Positions 3,655 through 64,000 of a stretch of DNA of 64,000 nt are shown one piece after another. Source of the stretch: Candidatus Staskawiczbacteria bacterium (GTDB taxonomy: Bacteria; Patescibacteriota; Minisyncoccia; Minisyncoccales; Staskawiczbacteraceae); contig JACPYG010000006.1 of NCBI GenBank assembly GCA_016196125.1, positions 54,511 through 118,510 on the forward strand, written 5' to 3'. Each line of letters opens with the position of its first letter. Within the stretch, counting starts at the first letter, position 1. The translations under genes were made by a program, and so were the position numbers. The notes below the pieces were generated by a model. The model saw only the letters and a list, made by a program, of their open reading frames with translations, had not been told where the DNA came from and made no database searches.

Positions 3655-4632
3655 TTAATGATCCAGCACAATAGAGCTTCCGCCTTCGGAAAACTTAAAA
3701 GAAACGTTTTTATATTCAGACAAAGCGTCCGTAATAGACTGGTGTTTTTCGGGCGGAGCTAACACCAAAAGAAACCCGCCGCCGCCGGCTCCCAAAATTT
3801 TTCCTCCGTACGCGCCAGCGGTCAGAACTTTTTGGTACATCTGATCAATGTGGGGACTAGAAATACCCGATGCTAATTCTTTTTTGAGCAACCAATTTTG
3901 GTGCAAGATGTTTCCCAGTTTTTCAAAATCCCCTTTTTCTAAAGCATTTTTAAAGACGGATACGTTATCTGACATCTTTTTCAAAAATTCAAATTTATTT
4001 GTAATATTTTGTTTTTGTTCCGACAAAATGAGATTAGCCGACCTTTCTTTGCCTGTAAAAAACATCAACAGGTGGTTTTGGAAATCTTCTTTTATGTTTG
4101 GCAACAGATTAATCGGCTCAACTGTAATTCTTCCGTCACAATTAAAATTAATCACATTCAAGCCGCCAAAAGCTGCTGCGTATTGGTCTTGTTTGCCGAT
4201 GGGAGCGCCATTTTTATCAATTTCAATTTCACAGGCTTCTTTTGCGATCATATCAGCCGATACATTATTTCCTAAAAAAGCATGCAAACTATGCAATAGT
4301 CCAACCGTAAAACTGCTTGATGAACCAAGCCCCAGTCCTGTTTTTTGAGCAGGAATATCGGCTAAAGAAGCGATGTCAACTCCTTCCTTAATGCCTAATT
4401 TTTCCAAGGACAATCTTACTAATGGGTGTTTTATTTGCGAACAATGATTTACCAATTCAATTTCGGAGTAACTTAACTTAATCATCTCGTCAAATCTCGG
4501 GTTTACGGTGACATAAAAATATTTATTAATTGAGGTGCTTAAAACTTTGCCCGGATAATGCCGGTAAAAATCTTCAAAGTCAGTTCCTCCGCCGACAAAG
4601 CTTATCCGTAATGGTGTTTTTGAAATAATCAT
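3655..4632 (-). CDS. hddA: GHMP-family sugar kinase, D-glycero-D-manno-heptose 7-phosphate kinase (HddA)-like
   Basis: PLRISFVGGGTDFEDFY N-terminus plus GHMP motif GLGLGSSSSF. Confidence 0.7.
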   Translation of the reverse strand: MIISKTPLRISFVGGGTDFEDFYRHYPGKVLSTSINKYFYVTVNPRFDEMIKLSYSEIELVNHCSQIKHPLVRLSLEKLGIKEGVDIASLADIPAQKTGLGLGSSSSFTVGLLHSLHAFLGNNVSADMIAKEACEIEIDKNGAPIGKQDQYAAAFGGLNVINFNCDGRITVEPINLLPNIKEDFQNHLLMFFTGKERSANLILSEQKQNITNKFEFLKKMSDNVSVFKNALEKGDFEKLGNILHQNWLLKKELASGISSPHIDQMYQKVLTAGAYGGKILGAGGGGFLLVLAPPEKHQSITDALSEYKNVSFKFSEGGSSIVLDH

Positions 4633-5318
4633 GATGATAAAACTTGGCTAAATATTTTCAACCGATCAAAGGTTCCAATATCATAAAACTTCTTGTCGGT
4701 AATATGAGCATAAAGTTCTTTTTTTTTAATCAAGATGGGCAACAATTCTTCTTCGAGTGAAAAAACAGAATTTTCAGGCACAAAGTTTAAAACGTCTTTT
4801 TGAAAAATATGGACTCCCGCTTCAACGCAATTTGATTGACCTTCATTCTTTTTATCATAATTTAACACTTCTCCCGTTTCTGAAACCTCAATATTGTTTA
4901 AAACTATTTTAGGACTGTTTTTAAAAACAACGGTCATTGCCAATTTTTTACTTTCGTTAAAATCAGCTACTACTAATTTGTAATCCATATGCAAAAAACT
5001 GTCGCCATAAATTACAAAAAATTTATTTTCCAAAAGTTTTTCAGCGTTTTTTAATGCCCCTCCCGTACCCAATGGTTCATTTTCTTTTGAATACTTAACA
5101 TGTATTCCTATTTTTTTTCCATTGCCAAAATACTTTTCTATTTTTTCTCCCAAATATCCTGTACATAAAATAAAATCCTCAAAACCATTTTTTTTAAACA
5201 TTTCTAATTGGTACTCCAAAAATGGCTTGCCATTAATTAAAACCATTGGTTTTGGCACTTTGTGGGTCAAAGGCCTTAACCTTGTTCCCAGTCCCCCGGC
5301 TAAAATAACGACTTGCAT
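4629..5318 (-). CDS. hddC: sugar-1-phosphate nucleotidyltransferase, heptose/mannose-1-phosphate guanylyltransferase (HddC)-like
   Basis: MQVVILAGGLGTRLRPLT...KPMV nucleotidyltransferase signature; 4-nt overlap with hddA. Confidence 0.7.
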   Translation of the reverse strand: MQVVILAGGLGTRLRPLTHKVPKPMVLINGKPFLEYQLEMFKKNGFEDFILCTGYLGEKIEKYFGNGKKIGIHVKYSKENEPLGTGGALKNAEKLLENKFFVIYGDSFLHMDYKLVVADFNESKKLAMTVVFKNSPKIVLNNIEVSETGEVLNYDKKNEGQSNCVEAGVHIFQKDVLNFVPENSVFSLEEELLPILIKKKELYAHITDKKFYDIGTFDRLKIFSQVLSS

Positions 5319-41508: not shown

Positions 41509-44500
41509 CTATCTTGTCCAGGTTTCAGAGGACAATGAATCTTTTACAAGATAACTGTTTGTCCAGTCAGCAGTAGCAGTTGATCCGCTCGTTGCAGCAG
41601 TATGAGCTATTGCTGAATTATCTGACCATATCAAGTCTGCATCTTCTGCCGAAGCGCTTGCTGTGGCAGAGGTGAATAACTTAATAATACCAGTCAACGA
41701 TGTACCAACATTCAGGTAGCCAATAAAGTCAACTGAAGTACTGCCGAATGTTACATCTGCAGTATCCGGGCTAAACGATATGGCAACGCTGTCTGCGGCT
41801 GTGTCGGTGGCGCCATCTAATCTAAACTCTTGAGGAACTCCATTAAGAGTGTAAGTAGTAGAAGTTCCAGCGATAATCACATCTTCTGTAGAGCCATCCC
41901 AAGTTACAATAATCTTGCTGTTAAGTTCGCTTACTCCGTCAGTGCTTTCTAAGCTGGTTGCAGTATCTTCATCCACAATACTTACAGAGGCGGTGATATC
42001 AACGCCGTCTTTGTAGAACTTAAACGACTCCAACTCCAGTTCGTCATCTGTTCCTCCATCAGACCATGCTACATCAAATTTAAGCTGTTTAACACTAATA
42101 TCGCCCGCTACTGGAGCGGCAACTTTCATGCTATACAAATCCAAGACCTGACCATTAGCAATAGTGCCTGAATTATCTAACTCAACCTTTGAAAGAGTTG
42201 GAACTGACCTATAAACATAAGTGCTGTTTCCGTCTCTTTCTGTGGTGCTTGTTGATACGGTTCCTTGTTCATCCATGTATTCAACAAATGACAGGGCTGG
42301 GACTATTCTCAATCCCGATGTGCCATTTGTGGCTGATGGAACAGCCAAGGTTGCTTTGGCAGTCAAGGTTTTTGATGTGCCTGCAGGAACTGCAACGTTC
42401 AAACCAGTGAAATAATAACCGCCAGTAGAACCATTGGTATCAATGGCGTTAAAGCTTTGCGCTGTACCAACCTGAACACTGCCATCCCACAGCGTTAAGC
42501 TGGAAATAGCATCTTCAGCATTGTCTGTTGCAGTAGAAGCAACATCTGGGTCAATTTTGACTTCTGTCAAAGTAAATGGCCTGTAATCAGCGGAGAATTT
42601 CCATCTTCCAATCTCAACCTCTTGATTTCCAGAAACCGTCTGGTTTTGAGGTGTGCCGATAAATGCAGTTGTAAGAGCGCCCGTAGTGTATGTTAATGCC
42701 TGACCGGTAACTTCTGCCGAATTGGCCGCAACAGCTGAAGAAACAGTAGTGCTGTCAATATCCAATACAACTGTTCCCGTGCCGGTTGTCATACCGCTGG
42801 CAACGTCCATATACACTTCTACAGGAATGGTTACTCCTGCGGCAAGTGTGTAGTTAATTGACCATGCGTTTGCAGCGGCAACGGTTGGCTTTACCGATGT
42901 CATCTGTGTTCCGTACTTTACATACAAGTTTGTTGCATATGTGCTTACTTCGTCAACGGCAACATTGATAGTTGAAATATTAACTGCCTCTGATGTGCTT
43001 GGAACTAAGTTGTAATCAGCAACTTTGTAAGCAAACAAAGGAGCAACAACTGAATGGGCTGCGTAAGCAGGGTCTAACGACAATGACAATGTGCCTTGGG
43101 CAACTGTCAAAGTATTAGCGCTTATATCGCCTGAAGGCACATCAAGTGTAGTTGAAGAAACTAAACCTGTAGCATTGTTGTTGGTGCTGGCTCCTTCAAT
43201 TGTAACTTGAATAGTGCTGCCCGAAACAATGCTGTTTGTGCTGTCTGAAGTGCCTGTGTCGTAAATATCGGCCCTTACCGTCAATATTACAGGGCTTCCC
43301 GGTTCAACTATCAAAGATGAACCCAAGTTAAATGTGGTGTAGTCAAAGCTTGAATCTGCCGGGTCATAAAGAGTGGTTGTGCTTCCAATTTGAACTCCAT
43401 TGGCGTAAATTGCTCCATTTCTTAATCCGCTAACGCCTGATGTGTTAACATTTGCAGAAATATAAAGAGTTTCAATCTTTACTTTCTCGCCAGCGGCTTT
43501 TAATTCAAATTTTGCCAATAAAGCGTTTGATGCGGCATCAACAATATCTCCCGATGGAGAATCCGACATCTTTGTAATTGTCAGAGTTCCGGAATTTATT
43601 GTTTGCGCGCCTGTTGACCTCTTGGTAAATGACGCGTCTGAAATTAAGTCAGACAATACATTTGCCATATATTGACTGTCAACAACGGTAACATCGGCTA
43701 CATTCCACAGGTGCATTGTGAAGTTCAAGCTTGAACCGCCAATAATGTCGGCTAAAACTTTAACAACTCTTGTTCCGGCTTCCAACCTTTTTGGAGTTCC
43801 GGTTAAGTCAAAAGTTACATAGCTTTGGTCTAAGCTGTCTGCCATTAATTGCTGTGTTGAACCAACTTGTATTCCGTCAACATATAGTTTGAAATTTTTT
43901 AAATCTGTGTTAGAAACGCTTCCGGTTTTCCTGAAGCTGATTCTTGTCATATCAACCGCCCTTGTAGTAACAATTACGCTGTTTTGGAAAACAGTGTAAC
44001 CGTCTTGAGGGTCAACATCAGCCGCCGCAGGGGTTGTTGTGGCATTCCACTCCACTCCTGCTAATGTTCCGGTTGCTATTGTCATTAAGTTTCCTGTAAT
44101 AGGATATGTTCCTTTTACAGAACTGGCGTTTGTTGTGACACTGGACATTGAAACAACTTGCATTCCAACTGTTTCTCCAGATGTGCCATTAACATCAGAC
44201 AATACAGAGATTGTCATAGAACCCATTGAAGGCACTGTGAACAATCCTGAAGTATTATTGAAGTTAATCATGGTTTCTGAAACAGCTGACCCATCGGTTA
44301 ATCTTACGGCTCCATTAAACAAATAGACATTGGTCAAAGAAGCGTCGGCTGAAACACCAATTCTCTTTAACTTTAATCCTGTAACCTTTACCGGAGCATT
44401 GTCTCCGTTTGTAAAGGTTAATTTTGCCAATGAGGCTAATGCCTGACCGTCAACAATTGTTCCTGTGGCTGGGTTGTCAGAAGCCAACATTACTGTAAGC

Positions 44501-44985
44501 CCTGCTCCGGTTGGAACTGGTGTTGGGGTTGGTATTGGAGTTTGAGTTGGTGAGCTGGCTAACCATGAATTTAATAAACCTCTTGTTAAAGGACCAACCT
44601 GGTTTGCAGGTATCCATCCTTGCGCGGCCTGTAATGCCCTGACCTTTGCTAAGGTCAAAGGACCAAAGTACATGGTTTCATTTCCAGGCGAACCTGCTCC
44701 TGTTATTGCAAGCTGGTATCCATGGGAATTCATAAGTGTTTGCATACACTTTACGTCTTGCCCGGTAGAACCAACCGTCAAATTCCTTGTAAATGTGACT
44801 CCAACGCAATTTGCAGACGTGCCACCAGTTGTCTGTTGGCCTTGCAATGCGGCTAGTTGAGCCATCAAGGCATTAATCTGAGCTTGCAAATCTGACAAAA
44901 GGTCAGCTGAAGCTATTCCAGGAGCAATCGTTGCAACCATAGTCAAAGCGACTGTGGCTGATATGATTGTTTTTCTTATATTCAT
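41509..44985 (-). CDS. large secreted cell-surface protein (signal peptide, coiled-coil, PG_binding_1-like domain, long Thr/Ser/Gly/Ala/Val-rich beta-rich region); S-layer/surface-array candidate
   Basis: The N-terminus MNIRKTIISATVALTMVATIAPGIASA is signal-like. LTVGSTGQDVKCMQTLMNSHGY...FGPLTLAKVRALQAAQG matches the peptidoglycan-binding motif. The remaining ~950 aa are low-complexity T/S/G/A/V-rich. No LPXTG or SLH motif was seen. Confidence 0.7.
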   Translation of the reverse strand: MNIRKTIISATVALTMVATIAPGIASADLLSDLQAQINALMAQLAALQGQQTTGGTSANCVGVTFTRNLTVGSTGQDVKCMQTLMNSHGYQLAITGAGSPGNETMYFGPLTLAKVRALQAAQGWIPANQVGPLTRGLLNSWLASSPTQTPIPTPTPVPTGAGLTVMLASDNPATGTIVDGQALASLAKLTFTNGDNAPVKVTGLKLKRIGVSADASLTNVYLFNGAVRLTDGSAVSETMINFNNTSGLFTVPSMGSMTISVLSDVNGTSGETVGMQVVSMSSVTTNASSVKGTYPITGNLMTIATGTLAGVEWNATTTPAAADVDPQDGYTVFQNSVIVTTRAVDMTRISFRKTGSVSNTDLKNFKLYVDGIQVGSTQQLMADSLDQSYVTFDLTGTPKRLEAGTRVVKVLADIIGGSSLNFTMHLWNVADVTVVDSQYMANVLSDLISDASFTKRSTGAQTINSGTLTITKMSDSPSGDIVDAASNALLAKFELKAAGEKVKIETLYISANVNTSGVSGLRNGAIYANGVQIGSTTTLYDPADSSFDYTTFNLGSSLIVEPGSPVILTVRADIYDTGTSDSTNSIVSGSTIQVTIEGASTNNNATGLVSSTTLDVPSGDISANTLTVAQGTLSLSLDPAYAAHSVVAPLFAYKVADYNLVPSTSEAVNISTINVAVDEVSTYATNLYVKYGTQMTSVKPTVAAANAWSINYTLAAGVTIPVEVYMDVASGMTTGTGTVVLDIDSTTVSSAVAANSAEVTGQALTYTTGALTTAFIGTPQNQTVSGNQEVEIGRWKFSADYRPFTLTEVKIDPDVASTATDNAEDAISSLTLWDGSVQVGTAQSFNAIDTNGSTGGYYFTGLNVAVPAGTSKTLTAKATLAVPSATNGTSGLRIVPALSFVEYMDEQGTVSTSTTERDGNSTYVYRSVPTLSKVELDNSGTIANGQVLDLYSMKVAAPVAGDISVKQLKFDVAWSDGGTDDELELESFKFYKDGVDITASVSIVDEDTATSLESTDGVSELNSKIIVTWDGSTEDVIIAGTSTTYTLNGVPQEFRLDGATDTAADSVAISFSPDTADVTFGSTSVDFIGYLNVGTSLTGIIKLFTSATASASAEDADLIWSDNSAIAHTAATSGSTATADWTNSYLVKDSLSSETWTR

Positions 44986-60039: not shown

Positions 60040-60242
60040 ATGTCAACCTATCTTTTTAATAATTCTTTCTGCTGTAATTTGAAATTTTAACTGCAAATTA
60101 TTAAAACCTCGTCGGCTTATATAATAATACAAACCTCCTCGCTTTTAATAATTTTCGTTTTAAAATTTCTGCATTTCGCCACAAAAGATTATTAAACGAT
60201 AGGTTGCTTATTTTAACCTATATTTCAAACTTTTCAAAACAC

Positions 60243-60277
60243 AAAAAAAGCTGATGAAATATTTTCTCAGCTTTTTT
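60243..60277. terminator. putative bidirectional terminator (A-run, GCTGA/TCAGC stem, T-run) between yqeY and ybeY
   Basis: Read directly; short stem, weak. Confidence 0.35.
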
Positions 60278-60288
60278 AATTATTAAAC

Positions 60289-62421: not shown

Positions 62422-63024
62422 TTAATAACTGGGAACAGTAATTTTAGATATATTTACTACCGGTAAAACGCGCAAAAAAACCTTGCCAATAATATTTTTT
62501 GCCGGTACGCTTCCCCATACCCTTGAATCATAAGAAAATTCTCTGTTATCTCCCAAAACAAAATATTCGTCTGCAGTTAAAATAAGTTTCAAAGTTCCAA
62601 TGGTTCCGGATGGATTAGGAAGATACTTTTCGTCCAGAGTTTGGCTTTTTTGATCTTTATATATTGTTACTTTTCCATCTTTAATTTCCACTGTTTCGCC
62701 TGGCAATCCAATAACTCTTTTTATAAATTTTTGCGAAGTGTCTTTAGGATATTTAAAAACAATAATATCTCCTCTTTCGGGATTTTTAAACTTATAAGAA
62801 ATTTCATCAATAATTAAGTAGTCGCCTGATTGAAAATTCGGCACCATTGATTCGCCTTTTACTATAAATGGCTGAAATAAAAAATAACGAATGGGGAGCA
62901 CTATTACCGAAGCAATAACAAATATCTTTAAAACTTCGAAAACAAACGGGAAATACTTTTTAACTATATTTATTTTGGTCTGTTCTTCGTTTGGCTGATT
63001 GTTTGATTTTGTTATTTGTTCCAT
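62422..63024 (-). CDS. lepB: signal peptidase I
   Basis: GESMVPNF (Ser box), KRVIGLPGE, GDNREFSYDSR motifs. Confidence 0.9.
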   Translation of the reverse strand: MEQITKSNNQPNEEQTKINIVKKYFPFVFEVLKIFVIASVIVLPIRYFLFQPFIVKGESMVPNFQSGDYLIIDEISYKFKNPERGDIIVFKYPKDTSQKFIKRVIGLPGETVEIKDGKVTIYKDQKSQTLDEKYLPNPSGTIGTLKLILTADEYFVLGDNREFSYDSRVWGSVPAKNIIGKVFLRVLPVVNISKITVPSY

Positions 63025-63079
63025 TTTTTTTAACTTTAAATTGAACTCATTCTAACATATTTTAAATTTATTACAAGAC

Positions 63080-63108
63080 CCCGCTAATTTTAATTAGCGG
63101 GGGTCAAG
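63080..63108. promoter_or_regulatory. near-perfect 28-bp palindrome GACCCCGCTAATTTTAATTAGCGGGGGTC upstream of lepB, at the compositional boundary
   Basis: Read directly. Confidence 0.4.
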
Positions 63109-63130
63109 TCCCTATTTATTGCAACAAATA

Positions 63131-63165
63131 AAAAAAGCGGGCCGAGACAAAATTGCCTCAGCCCT
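63131..63165 (-). terminator. rho-independent terminator (GGGCTGAGG-loop-CTCGGCCC then T7 on the minus strand) ending the GC-rich cassette
   Basis: Read directly on the minus strand. Confidence 0.5.
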
Positions 63166-63210
63166 TGGTGCTTGGAAGTGTTTACGAACAAAGTTTAATG
63201 ATATTTTACG

Positions 63211-63471
63211 CTACGCGCCTCTCGCCCGATAAACCGGGCGATGCTCCTTGGTCTTATCAAAATGGCCATTGTGGCCACTGCTGTCGTCTCCCCGAAGGAG
63301 CCGACACACCGCCATAGGATGGATCCCCATGCCAAACTTCTTCTCAAAGCTGCGAGACAAGCTTTCAAGGAAGTTCTGCGTGAGAACTTCCCCGTTGGCT
63401 CGCAGTGAGAGAAGAAACTCCTTTTGGTCATGGTTCAACTGGTGGTGGTTGTGACAAGTTGTCTTTGACAT
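63211..63471 (-). CDS. small His-rich hypothetical protein (86 aa) in GC-rich cassette
   Basis: ATG preceded by a GAAAGGA RBS and followed by a terminator. Local GC is roughly 50%. Competing ORFs overlap in other frames, so coding is uncertain. Confidence 0.35.
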   Translation of the reverse strand: MSKTTCHNHHQLNHDQKEFLLSLRANGEVLTQNFLESLSRSFEKKFGMGIHPMAVCRLLRGDDSSGHNGHFDKTKEHRPVYRARGA

Positions 63472-63598
63472 AAAATCCTTTCTTCTGTGCGCGTATGTGA
63501 ACTAAACCACACAAGACAAAATGCCTCTTCTCTGTCCGACCAAAGCACGGCAGTCGCTGTTCTTAATTTACCTCCTTTCTCTTAAAGGTGCTATCTTG

Positions 63599-63627
63599 AT
63601 TGTACGCCTACTCAAATACAAAGTCAA
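63599..63627 (-). promoter_or_regulatory. sigma-70-like promoter TTGACT-N17-TACAAT (minus strand) upstream of the 86-aa ORF
   Basis: Read directly; consensus-like -35/-10 elements with 17-nt spacing. Confidence 0.4.
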
Positions 63628-63707
63628 TATTATTATTATTATGCAATAAAAAAGCAAAGTGGTTAGCTTCGCTCTGGGTTTTGCGGATTTTCTTTATCCG
63701 CCTGTTG

Positions 63708-63941
63708 TCACTTGGAAGTGACTTTTTTTCGTTTCAGCAACTTTCGTGCCTCATCCGTGTTATCTTCAAAGATAGCAGTTTCCAAAGCTTGACCGATGGT
63801 CTCGCCTGGACGGAGCTCTCTCCTGGCTGCCAAGAGAAGGGCCACTGTGTAAAGTTCGGGGTCTTCTGCGAAGTATTCTTCTTGCTCCAGTTTTTGAGCA
63901 ATCTGCTCAACAATGGGATAGACCACATCATTCAGTTTCAT
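63708..63941 (-). CDS. small acidic hypothetical protein (77 aa) in GC-rich cassette
   Basis: ATG preceded by an AAGGAGA RBS at -7. It is followed on the minus strand by the hairpin GCGGATTTTCTTTATCCGC. Confidence 0.4.
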   Translation of the reverse strand: MKLNDVVYPIVEQIAQKLEQEEYFAEDPELYTVALLLAARRELRPGETIGQALETAIFEDNTDEARKLLKRKKVTSK

Positions 63942-64000
63942 AGCAGGTCTCCTTTTGGTTAGGGTGTGCTGTGATTACAGTACCACACTCGGCGTTTATT

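Follow-up and report, generated by a model that had tools for sequence, protein, structure and literature searches.

Background

Guanine-plus-cytosine (GC)-rich islands in AT-rich genomes are often RNA genes. Several other described systems come close to the locus reported here. Type II toxin-antitoxin, addiction and defence modules are compact pairs of a larger and a small acidic protein, with their own promoter and terminator and no mobility gene. Genomic islets and cis-mobilisable elements are small units of foreign composition that are missing from the corresponding site in relatives. Small helix-turn-helix (HTH) regulators are built on three helices, and autoregulatory leaders, such as the L20 leader (RF00558), are 5' leaders with conserved motifs that precede a small basic protein. 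In Candidatus Staskawiczbacteria, a lineage of the Candidate Phyla Radiation (CPR), a TIGR-Tas RNA-guided system has been described (bioRxiv 10.64898/2026.09.09.750476), marked by a Tas protein with RuvC, coiled-coil and C-terminal domains and a tandem guide-RNA array next to it. Here we analyse the end of a 64,000-nucleotide (nt) stretch of a Candidatus Staskawiczbacteria contig (JACPYG010000006.1, assembly GCA_016196125.1), hereafter the window, where positions 63131 to 64000 carry two small genes on the minus strand: an open reading frame (ORF) of 86 amino acids (aa) that we call gene X, and a gene for an acidic protein of 77 aa that belongs to a two-gene operon.

An earlier sequence-only reading took this region, GC-rich and supplied with strong expression signals, as a self-contained two-gene cassette, and offered horizontal acquisition by way of phage or plasmid, a chimeric assembly join or contaminant, or an unusual structured leader or non-coding RNA as its origin. 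Our analysis indicates that the compositional switch probably reflects two independent, neighbouring transcription units, a resident gene X and an operon inserted beside it. Loci retrieved from other genomes are designated by L numbers and individual proteins by P numbers.

Results

Two transcription units at the end of the window

The announced switch in composition at about 63131 was borne out. The GC content of 63131-64000 is 46.1%, whereas 870-nt windows average 34.7% (standard deviation 3.6); this is the 870-nt stretch of maximum GC, and only 0.02% of windows get that high. In a 300-nt profile, GC rises from 0.29-0.31 (62800-63199) to 0.50-0.51 (63100-63499) and then runs at 0.40-0.47 to the window end. 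The ORFs, promoter, ribosome-binding sites and terminators were likewise found on the minus strand at the positions given by the sequence-only reading, as judged from the ORF list, a signal scan and direct reading. Three promoter-like and five terminator-like sites were counted in the region, where 1.4 and 1.5 are expected by chance; taken alone these counts are weak support, and the signals are credible because the same ones are kept in relatives.

The two genes do not share one history. When 63050-64000 was compared by blastn with all loci bearing relatives of the 77-aa protein, only 63633/63645-64000 was common to them, that is, the gene and its terminator. The homology to other operon copies stops at 63633 (L006/L007) or 63645 (L010), and 63131-63632 found no match in any operon-bearing locus. 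From the opposite side, homology to relatives without the operon begins at the -35 box of X. The place where one homology ends and the other starts is an A/T-rich (TAA)n junction between operon and native DNA at 63628..63644. The idea of a self-contained two-gene cassette fails on this break at 63633-63645, and also because the first gene of the operon to which the 77-aa gene belongs (~253 aa) lies beyond 64000. Horizontal acquisition holds for approximately 63645-64000 and beyond, that is, for the 77-aa gene and its terminator, but not for X, which is resident at a conserved position and GC-rich in relatives as well.

Gene X is a coding gene resident between pth and lepB

Gene X (63211..63471, minus strand) encodes a His/Arg-rich protein of 86 aa with an isoelectric point (pI) of 9.4. 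It is present in the ORF list and missing from the NCBI annotation, in which the proteins of the source contig bear consecutive accessions: hisS MBI3337285.1, lepB MBI3337286.1, the 77-aa protein HY005_01520 MBI3337287.1 and HY005_01525 MBI3337288.1. Because the accessions of lepB and the 77-aa protein run consecutively, there is no NCBI gene between them and X was skipped.

A sigma-70-type promoter detected by the scan, TTGACT-N17-TACAAT (63599..63627), precedes a 5' leader defined by leader alignment (63472..63592). The leader had been described as ~135 nt long and containing GAAAGGAGGT; the motif is there, but the length is ~121 nt if transcription starts near 63592, as we assume, with the ATG at 63471. 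Its conserved, purine-rich motifs are GAAAGGAGGT (63579-63570), CAGAGAAGAGGC (63534-63523) and TTCACA (~63501-63496), and a ribosome-binding site, AAAGGA, occupies 63482-63477. The scan also placed an intrinsic terminator behind X (63130..63164), with a stem at 63164-63139 (GGGCTGAGGCAATTTTGTCTCGGCCC) followed by GC and a run of seven T (63136-63130).

A word-indexed homologue search returned no match for X, and an exhaustive phmmer search of 1.84 billion representatives returned ten, eight of them of the same family (E 6e-13 to 3e-4). Six of the eight are 85-93 aa long, one has 135 aa through an N-terminal extension and one has 148 aa through a tandem duplication, and they align along the ORF. 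In a frame-blind DNA alignment, indels are of 6, 9, 15 or 18 nt only, all multiples of three, and third codon positions vary most, which argues that X is truly coding. Furthermore, every homologue contig that we fetched (L021, L022-25, L026/27, L028, L029) has the gene order pth(-)-X-lepB(-hisS), laid out as pth on the opposite strand, promoter, leader, X, terminator, lepB promoter and lepB. Around the best homologue, P0062 in L022, the order is pth(-), X, lepB, hisS, S21, YqeY...YbeY, as in the window. Proteins of these relatives are 92% (hisS) and 80-86% (lepB) identical to those of the window, with 67% over a 39-aa lepB fragment in L029, and the two genomes with NCBI names are both Candidatus Staskawiczbacteria. 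Since the homologues share the pth-lepB position and the GC-richness in related genomes, X appears to be a resident gene rather than a recent import; its known occurrence is limited to a few genomes that are close relatives.

The sequences that frame X are conserved as well. The terminator sequence GGGCTGAG...CTCAGCCC-Tn is kept in 5/5 relatives, and the promoter, TTGAC(T)-N17-TATAAT, is kept in L021 and L027 and looser in L022. The leader motifs GAAAGGAGG, CAGAGAAGAGGC and TTCACAC are conserved in the X leaders of relatives, and each X locus has a single CAGRGRAGAGGY motif, which was absent from all other loci fetched. The leaders of L021 (553-566, 600-613) and L027 (~477-490, 529-540) each contain two Shine-Dalgarno-like GAAAGGAGG boxes separated by ~50 nt, neither of which is followed by a start codon; the window leader has one copy and is ~56 nt shorter.

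Between these conserved borders the ORF itself is highly variable and compositionally distinct. Homologues of X have 44-53% GC, against 20-32% in their flanks, and GC at third codon positions (GC3) of 0.37-0.64, against 0.20-0.33 for lepB, hisS, S21 and YqeY; in the window, X has a GC3 of 0.64 and neighbouring genes 0.22-0.33. Amino-acid composition does not account for this richness. X is GC-rich in every relative, and therefore its GC-richness does not come from recent import into this genome; it is a long-standing property of the locus. Amino-acid identity of X between relatives is 43-49%, compared with 92% for hisS and 80-86% for lepB. By the Nei-Gojobori method, nonsynonymous divergence (dN) of X is 0.41-0.51 and the proportion of synonymous differences (pS) 0.66-0.81, corresponding to a synonymous divergence (dS) from 1.6 to saturated, whereas lepB, hisS, S21 and YqeY show a dN of 0.04-0.11 and a dS of 0.38-0.91. 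X evolves far faster than its flanks, synonymous sites included.

A two-gene operon inserted beside X

The gene of the 77-aa protein (63708..63941, minus strand; pI 5.0, with a basic KLLKRKK tail) follows an intergenic spacer (63942..63995) whose ribosome-binding site, AAGGAGA (63954-63948), stands 6 nt before the ATG, and which aligns with other copies up to 64000. The last 5 nt of the partner gene (63996..64000), with its TAA stop at 63998-63996, close the window; the rest lies outside it. Downstream, the operon 3' untranslated region (63645..63707) holds a hairpin, GCGGAT-N7-ATCCGC (63701-63683), and then the operon terminator found by the scan, AGAGCGAAGCTAACCACTTTGCTTT (63675-63651), with a T-run reaching 63648. 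Both 3' hairpins are kept in L006, L010 and L012; other copies have variant terminators.

Homologues of the 77-aa protein form 23 clusters, 21 of them at 65-94% identity and two at 43-45%. In every locus with enough upstream sequence, a partner gene of ~253-277 aa lies upstream of the 77-aa gene: the two stand together in L002, L003, L006, L010, L011, L014 and L015-L020, with partial copies in L004, L005 and L009. The partner family comprises 38 clusters and includes HY005_01525 of the window's contig. Pfam contains no domain that matches either family. Close to its C-terminus, HY005_01525 (P0054) lacks 14 aa, RREDEIWVTSFFNL, that are conserved in nearly all full-length members of the family; this could mean a decaying copy, a variant or an assembly error.

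Conservation among the copies starts at the operon's own promoter, TTGAC(T/A)-N17/18-TAnnAT, ~80 nt before the partner ATG, and ends at the terminator T-run after the 77-aa gene, with flanks that diverge directly beyond. These limits argue for a unit of ~1.2 kb, from promoter to terminator, that would encode the ~253-aa and the 77-aa protein. The neighbours of this unit differ in each genome: ribosomal proteins and an M50 peptidase on one side and L28 on the other by our own reading of the sequence (L002), PvlArgDC (L005), an ABC transporter (L006), a tRNA ~200 nt away (L010), pth (L011) and an S1-like protein (L013), both read from ORF translations, and ABC-F and YgjP-like proteins (L015). 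The GC content of the operon is 0.41-0.48 in hosts of 0.29-0.51, below that of the host in L002 and L005 and above it in the window (45.8% for the operon part vs 34.6%), L006, L011 and L012. Hosts named in the source records include Staskawiczbacteria, Taylorbacteria and Saccharibacteria. Judged from these comparisons, the operon spreads horizontally among CPR bacteria. Most operon-bearing contigs are shorter than 3 kb and both metagenome-assembled genome (MAG) contigs available here break within the operon, which fits a sequence common to co-occurring genomes. In L014 a 314-aa ORF just upstream of the operon (4026-4970, minus strand), in a patch of 43-52% GC, resembles an IS30-type transposase by eye.

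None of the relatives' pth-X spacers examined (L021, L022, L027) contains the operon, and therefore it was inserted in this genome. The T-run of its terminator ends ~20 nt upstream of the X -35 box, and similarity to other copies reaches within 5-17 nt of it. The operon would thus have landed ~5-20 nt upstream of this box and left the X promoter intact. Only one operon border is visible in the window. In L006 (158-198 and 1463-1503; also L007), the operon is flanked exactly at its promoter and terminator ends by the two copies (95% identical) of a 41-nt direct repeat, which looks like an att-type duplication; no convincing flanking repeat was found around the operon in L002, L010, L011 and L015. 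Two kinds of mobile unit were considered and rejected. An integron gene cassette does not fit, as the operon has its own conserved promoter and its 3' end is a simple terminator that varies between copies, not an attC site; nor does an insertion sequence or miniature inverted-repeat transposable element, since the operon has no transposase domain and no terminal inverted repeats.

Possible functions of X and of the operon proteins

An AlphaFold2 model of X (predicted local distance difference test, pLDDT, 74) has helices at 14-23, 32-46 and 52-66 and a disordered basic tail, and members of the family have a pI of 9.4-12. In Foldseek the model superposes best on HTH domains: the N-terminal domain of the G20c small terminase (template modelling score, TM, 0.51; root-mean-square deviation 2.3), the engrailed homeodomain (TM normalised by target, TMt, 0.64) and the N-terminal domain of TP901-1 CI. 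No HTH match for X was significant in Foldseek (E>=0.8), Pfam (E>=0.03) or PDB sequences (E>=0.17), and Pfam HTH_33/HTH_32 matched weakly in one homologue only (HTH_33 E=0.033). From the model we tentatively propose, at somewhat less than even confidence, that X is a small nucleic-acid-binding, HTH-like regulator, whose target may be its own promoter or leader, which are conserved. The homologue in L022 (1003-1449, P0062) is a 148-aa tandem duplication of a ~65-aa three-helix core, which suggests that the X protein acts as a dimer.

The model of the partner protein (pLDDT 82, predicted TM-score 0.83) had no structural neighbour in PDB or BFVD, the best PDB TM being ~0.16, and neither the operon proteins nor X matched the sequence of a solved structure. 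In Pfam, PADLOC, PHROGs and NCBIfam, nothing beyond sub-threshold noise (Cas6_I-A E 0.006, Cas11e E 0.005) came up for X, the two operon proteins or the homologues of the three. An ADP-ribosyltransferase-like reading of partner residues (R91, S103, Q-x-E) was dropped for want of fold support. The operon consists of two adjacent, co-oriented genes with one promoter and one terminator, which co-occur wherever the sequence allows checking. It is possible, although we hold it with considerable doubt, that the two genes form a selfish module, either a toxin-antitoxin or a defence pair; this proposal comes from the behaviour of the unit and not from homology, because of its strict co-occurrence, strong purifying conservation, autonomous transcription and patchy, recombinase-free spread. 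More speculative, and to our mind improbable, is that the operon represents an undescribed minimal selfish CPR element, a new addiction or defence pair that would spread without a recombinase of its own, perhaps by att-like repeats such as that of L006, linked with a hot spot between pth and lepB where allelic exchange or GC-biased conversion would maintain the GC-rich X alleles. Between yqeY and ybeY, L022 (4776-5745) has a SocA_Panacea gene and a 110-aa gene that are both missing in the window (60040-60288). This toxin-antitoxin-like pair is a second two-gene presence/absence difference among these genomes and parallels the operon.

Other features of the window

The lepB promoter, TTGTAA-N16-(TG)TAGAAT (63076-63049, minus strand), was found by the scan and belongs to the native context; its block TTTAAAATATGTTARAAT is unchanged across relatives. 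Between it and the X terminator, a near-perfect, window-specific hairpin (63078-63106; GACCCCCGCTAATTAAAATTAGCGGGGTC on the minus strand) has a 5' arm that is an insertion missing from all five relatives, and it may be an extra bidirectional terminator. The sole other GC-rich patch of the window (41-44.5% GC) is an ORF of 1158 aa at 41509-44985 (minus strand), which has an N-terminal signal-like segment and abundant Thr, Ser, Ala, Gly and Val, and no Pfam match at E<=1e-5; the product is probably a large surface protein, and its composition would account for the raised GC. The 64-kb window has no tRNA or tmRNA gene according to ARAGORN and no Rfam family at the gathering threshold, and there was no tandem, CRISPR-like or TIGR-like array, six trivial repeats being all that was seen.

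Discussion

Two alternatives treat the GC-rich end as a single piece of foreign or misplaced DNA. That the whole of 63131-64000 is one recent two-gene cassette from a phage or plasmid seems to us most improbable. In its favour, the two genes share a high GC content, the strand and strong canonical signals, and the 77-aa part has truly spread horizontally; against this, the relatives with X all have it at this same chromosomal position and lack the 77-aa gene beside it, no other locus with the 77-aa gene has X, the homology breaks between them and each gene has a promoter or terminator of its own. A phage or plasmid source has nothing to point to: blastn of 63100-64000 against 50,697 phage and 72,556 plasmid records gave no match, IMG/VR viral contigs hold no relatives of the 77-aa or the partner protein, and a scan of viral contigs for the 17-nt leader motif gave 16 matches with no X-like ORF nearby, which we take as chance. 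A chimeric assembly, or a contaminant joined to the Staskawiczbacteria contig, we likewise judge quite unlikely. The operon does stand at a contig end in both assemblies, one stopping in the partner gene and the other at window 63969, most element-bearing contigs are short, and the junction is low-complexity (TAA)n. However, a second MAG (GCA_016178195.1, JACOTX010000059.1, 2,984 nt) has the same lepB-to-77-aa stretch, 100% identical over 920 nt and ending at that position, so that the junction is identical in two assemblies; the 500 nt adjoining it, that is, X, are native; the element is embedded elsewhere in long CPR contigs, of 162 kb and up to 280 kb; and the (TAA)n run of ~14 nt is presumably too short to bridge assembler k-mers. 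As for a laboratory organism or vector, blastn of 63100-64000 against E. coli genomes gave no match and vector-like plasmids gave none either, which, with the presence of the element inside long CPR contigs, speaks against contamination.

The other two alternatives concern X itself. It is very unlikely that 63131-63627 is mainly a structured RNA, either a regulatory leader or a small RNA, with the 86-aa ORF incidental. The leader motifs CAGAGAAGAGGC and GAAAGGAGGT are more conserved than the ORF, neither NCBI nor the gene caller of the collection annotated the ORF in this genome, its high GC3 points to selection at the nucleotide level, and a GC-rich island in an AT-rich genome would fit an RNA gene; but the eight protein homologues, the indels in multiples of three only and the excess of third-position change tell for a protein. 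Nor did Rfam match the X leader, whether at the gathering threshold in the window and five related loci or at E<=10 over 62900-64000; the five related loci contain one tRNA (L010) only, and the minimum free energy of the leader in five sequences does not differ from that of shuffled versions (z -0.8 to +1.0). The structured-RNA suggestion of the sequence-only reading thus does not hold for the ORF; for the leader, as a possible regulatory element, it has weak support. Control of the translation of a real X protein by its leader is compatible with our explanation and forms part of it. A less remote alternative, to which we give a modest chance, is that X is not strictly native and that the pth-lepB spacer is a recombination hot spot where X alleles that have diverged, and now and then another small module like the operon, are exchanged, with the conserved leader and terminator as anchors and GC-biased gene conversion lifting GC3. 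X is near synonymous saturation while its flanks have a dS of 0.4-0.9, the hypervariable ORF is framed by a conserved promoter, leader and terminator, GC3 is raised in every allele, one relative has a tandem-duplicated allele (P0062), and the operon was inserted in the same spacer. On the other hand, there are only six alleles, with ORFs of ~80 codons that make dS noisy, no donor lineage was found, and all X homologues with context lie at this one locus. A hypervariable ORF in a conserved frame is compatible with diversifying selection on old alleles, with allelic replacement by recombination and with a hot spot of GC-biased conversion, and the hot-spot proposal refines rather than replaces the explanation by two independent units.

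Several observations weigh against that explanation, by a resident X and an inserted operon. The raised synonymous divergence and GC3 of X could mean that X alleles are themselves exchanged horizontally, which would blur the word native. The junction at 63628-63644 rests on two assemblies, maybe of related samples, in which both contigs end less than 0.5 kb away; the source contig (118,951 nt) ends ~0.45 kb beyond the window, within the partner gene HY005_01525 (partial, 147 aa), so that the far side of the insertion, where pth is expected, lies outside it. An integrase or transposase was not found in the unit, nor were terminal inverted repeats, and no target duplication was consistent among the copies; the partner copy without the conserved 14-aa segment may indicate that the operon is decaying here. 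For the functions proposed, searches of sequence families, PDB and structures gave no family or fold match.

These results lift the contamination or chimera flag from a CPR genome and add the missed gene X to its annotation. They indicate that, where a CPR genome is AT-rich, one GC-rich patch can hold both an atypical gene that is resident and DNA truly inserted by horizontal transfer, and they define three families of uncharacterised proteins, of which one seems to have a new fold. Hypervariable within conserved regulatory sequences, X is a small, clean test case for diversifying selection or biased gene conversion in reduced genomes. The two-gene unit, which is delimited by promoter and terminator and has moved between CPR lineages, is a candidate that lends itself to work on gene flow and on selfish or defence modules in bacteria that are not culturable alone. 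A general search of the literature for cassettes transferred horizontally in CPR bacteria brought up nothing specific. The interest is moderate and for CPR specialists; no new category is involved.

Comparison with known systems

The nearest counterparts of X are small HTH regulators, among them the N-terminal domains of phage CI/Xre proteins, homeodomain-like proteins and the N-terminal HTH of small terminases. The model of X has three helices, as these do, and adds a basic disordered tail; no significant sequence or fold match links X to the group. Its leader recalls autoregulatory leaders such as that of L20 in that a ~120-170-nt 5' leader with conserved motifs precedes a small basic protein. 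It differs in having no stable or covarying structure, X is no known ribosomal protein, and the match to L20_leader RF00558 is noise (14.8 bits against a cut-off of 58.7, E=8) located in the 3' part of the X gene and not in the leader. As to the TIGR-Tas system, the window has no tandem array, and the best PDB TM of the partner is the ~0.16 given above, from a structure library in which the presence of Tas was unchecked.

The operon is comparable to type II toxin-antitoxin, addiction and defence modules in being compact (~1.2 kb), in pairing a larger with a small acidic protein under its own promoter and terminator without a mobility gene, and in its patchy distribution, own composition and unrelated contexts; unlike them, it matches no toxin, antitoxin or defence model, and its genes are ~50 nt apart and not overlapping. 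Compared with genomic islets and cis-mobilisable elements, the operon differs in that no repeat accompanies it in L002, L010, L011 or L015 and that its edges coincide exactly with promoter and terminator. It resembles them in its foreign composition, its absence from the relatives' site and the lack of an integrase, as well as in the 41-nt direct repeat of one copy (L006/L007) and the tRNA gene ~200 nt from another (L010). The event itself is an ordinary one, a small transferred islet beside a lineage-specific orphan gene, and it brings together three uncharacterised protein families.

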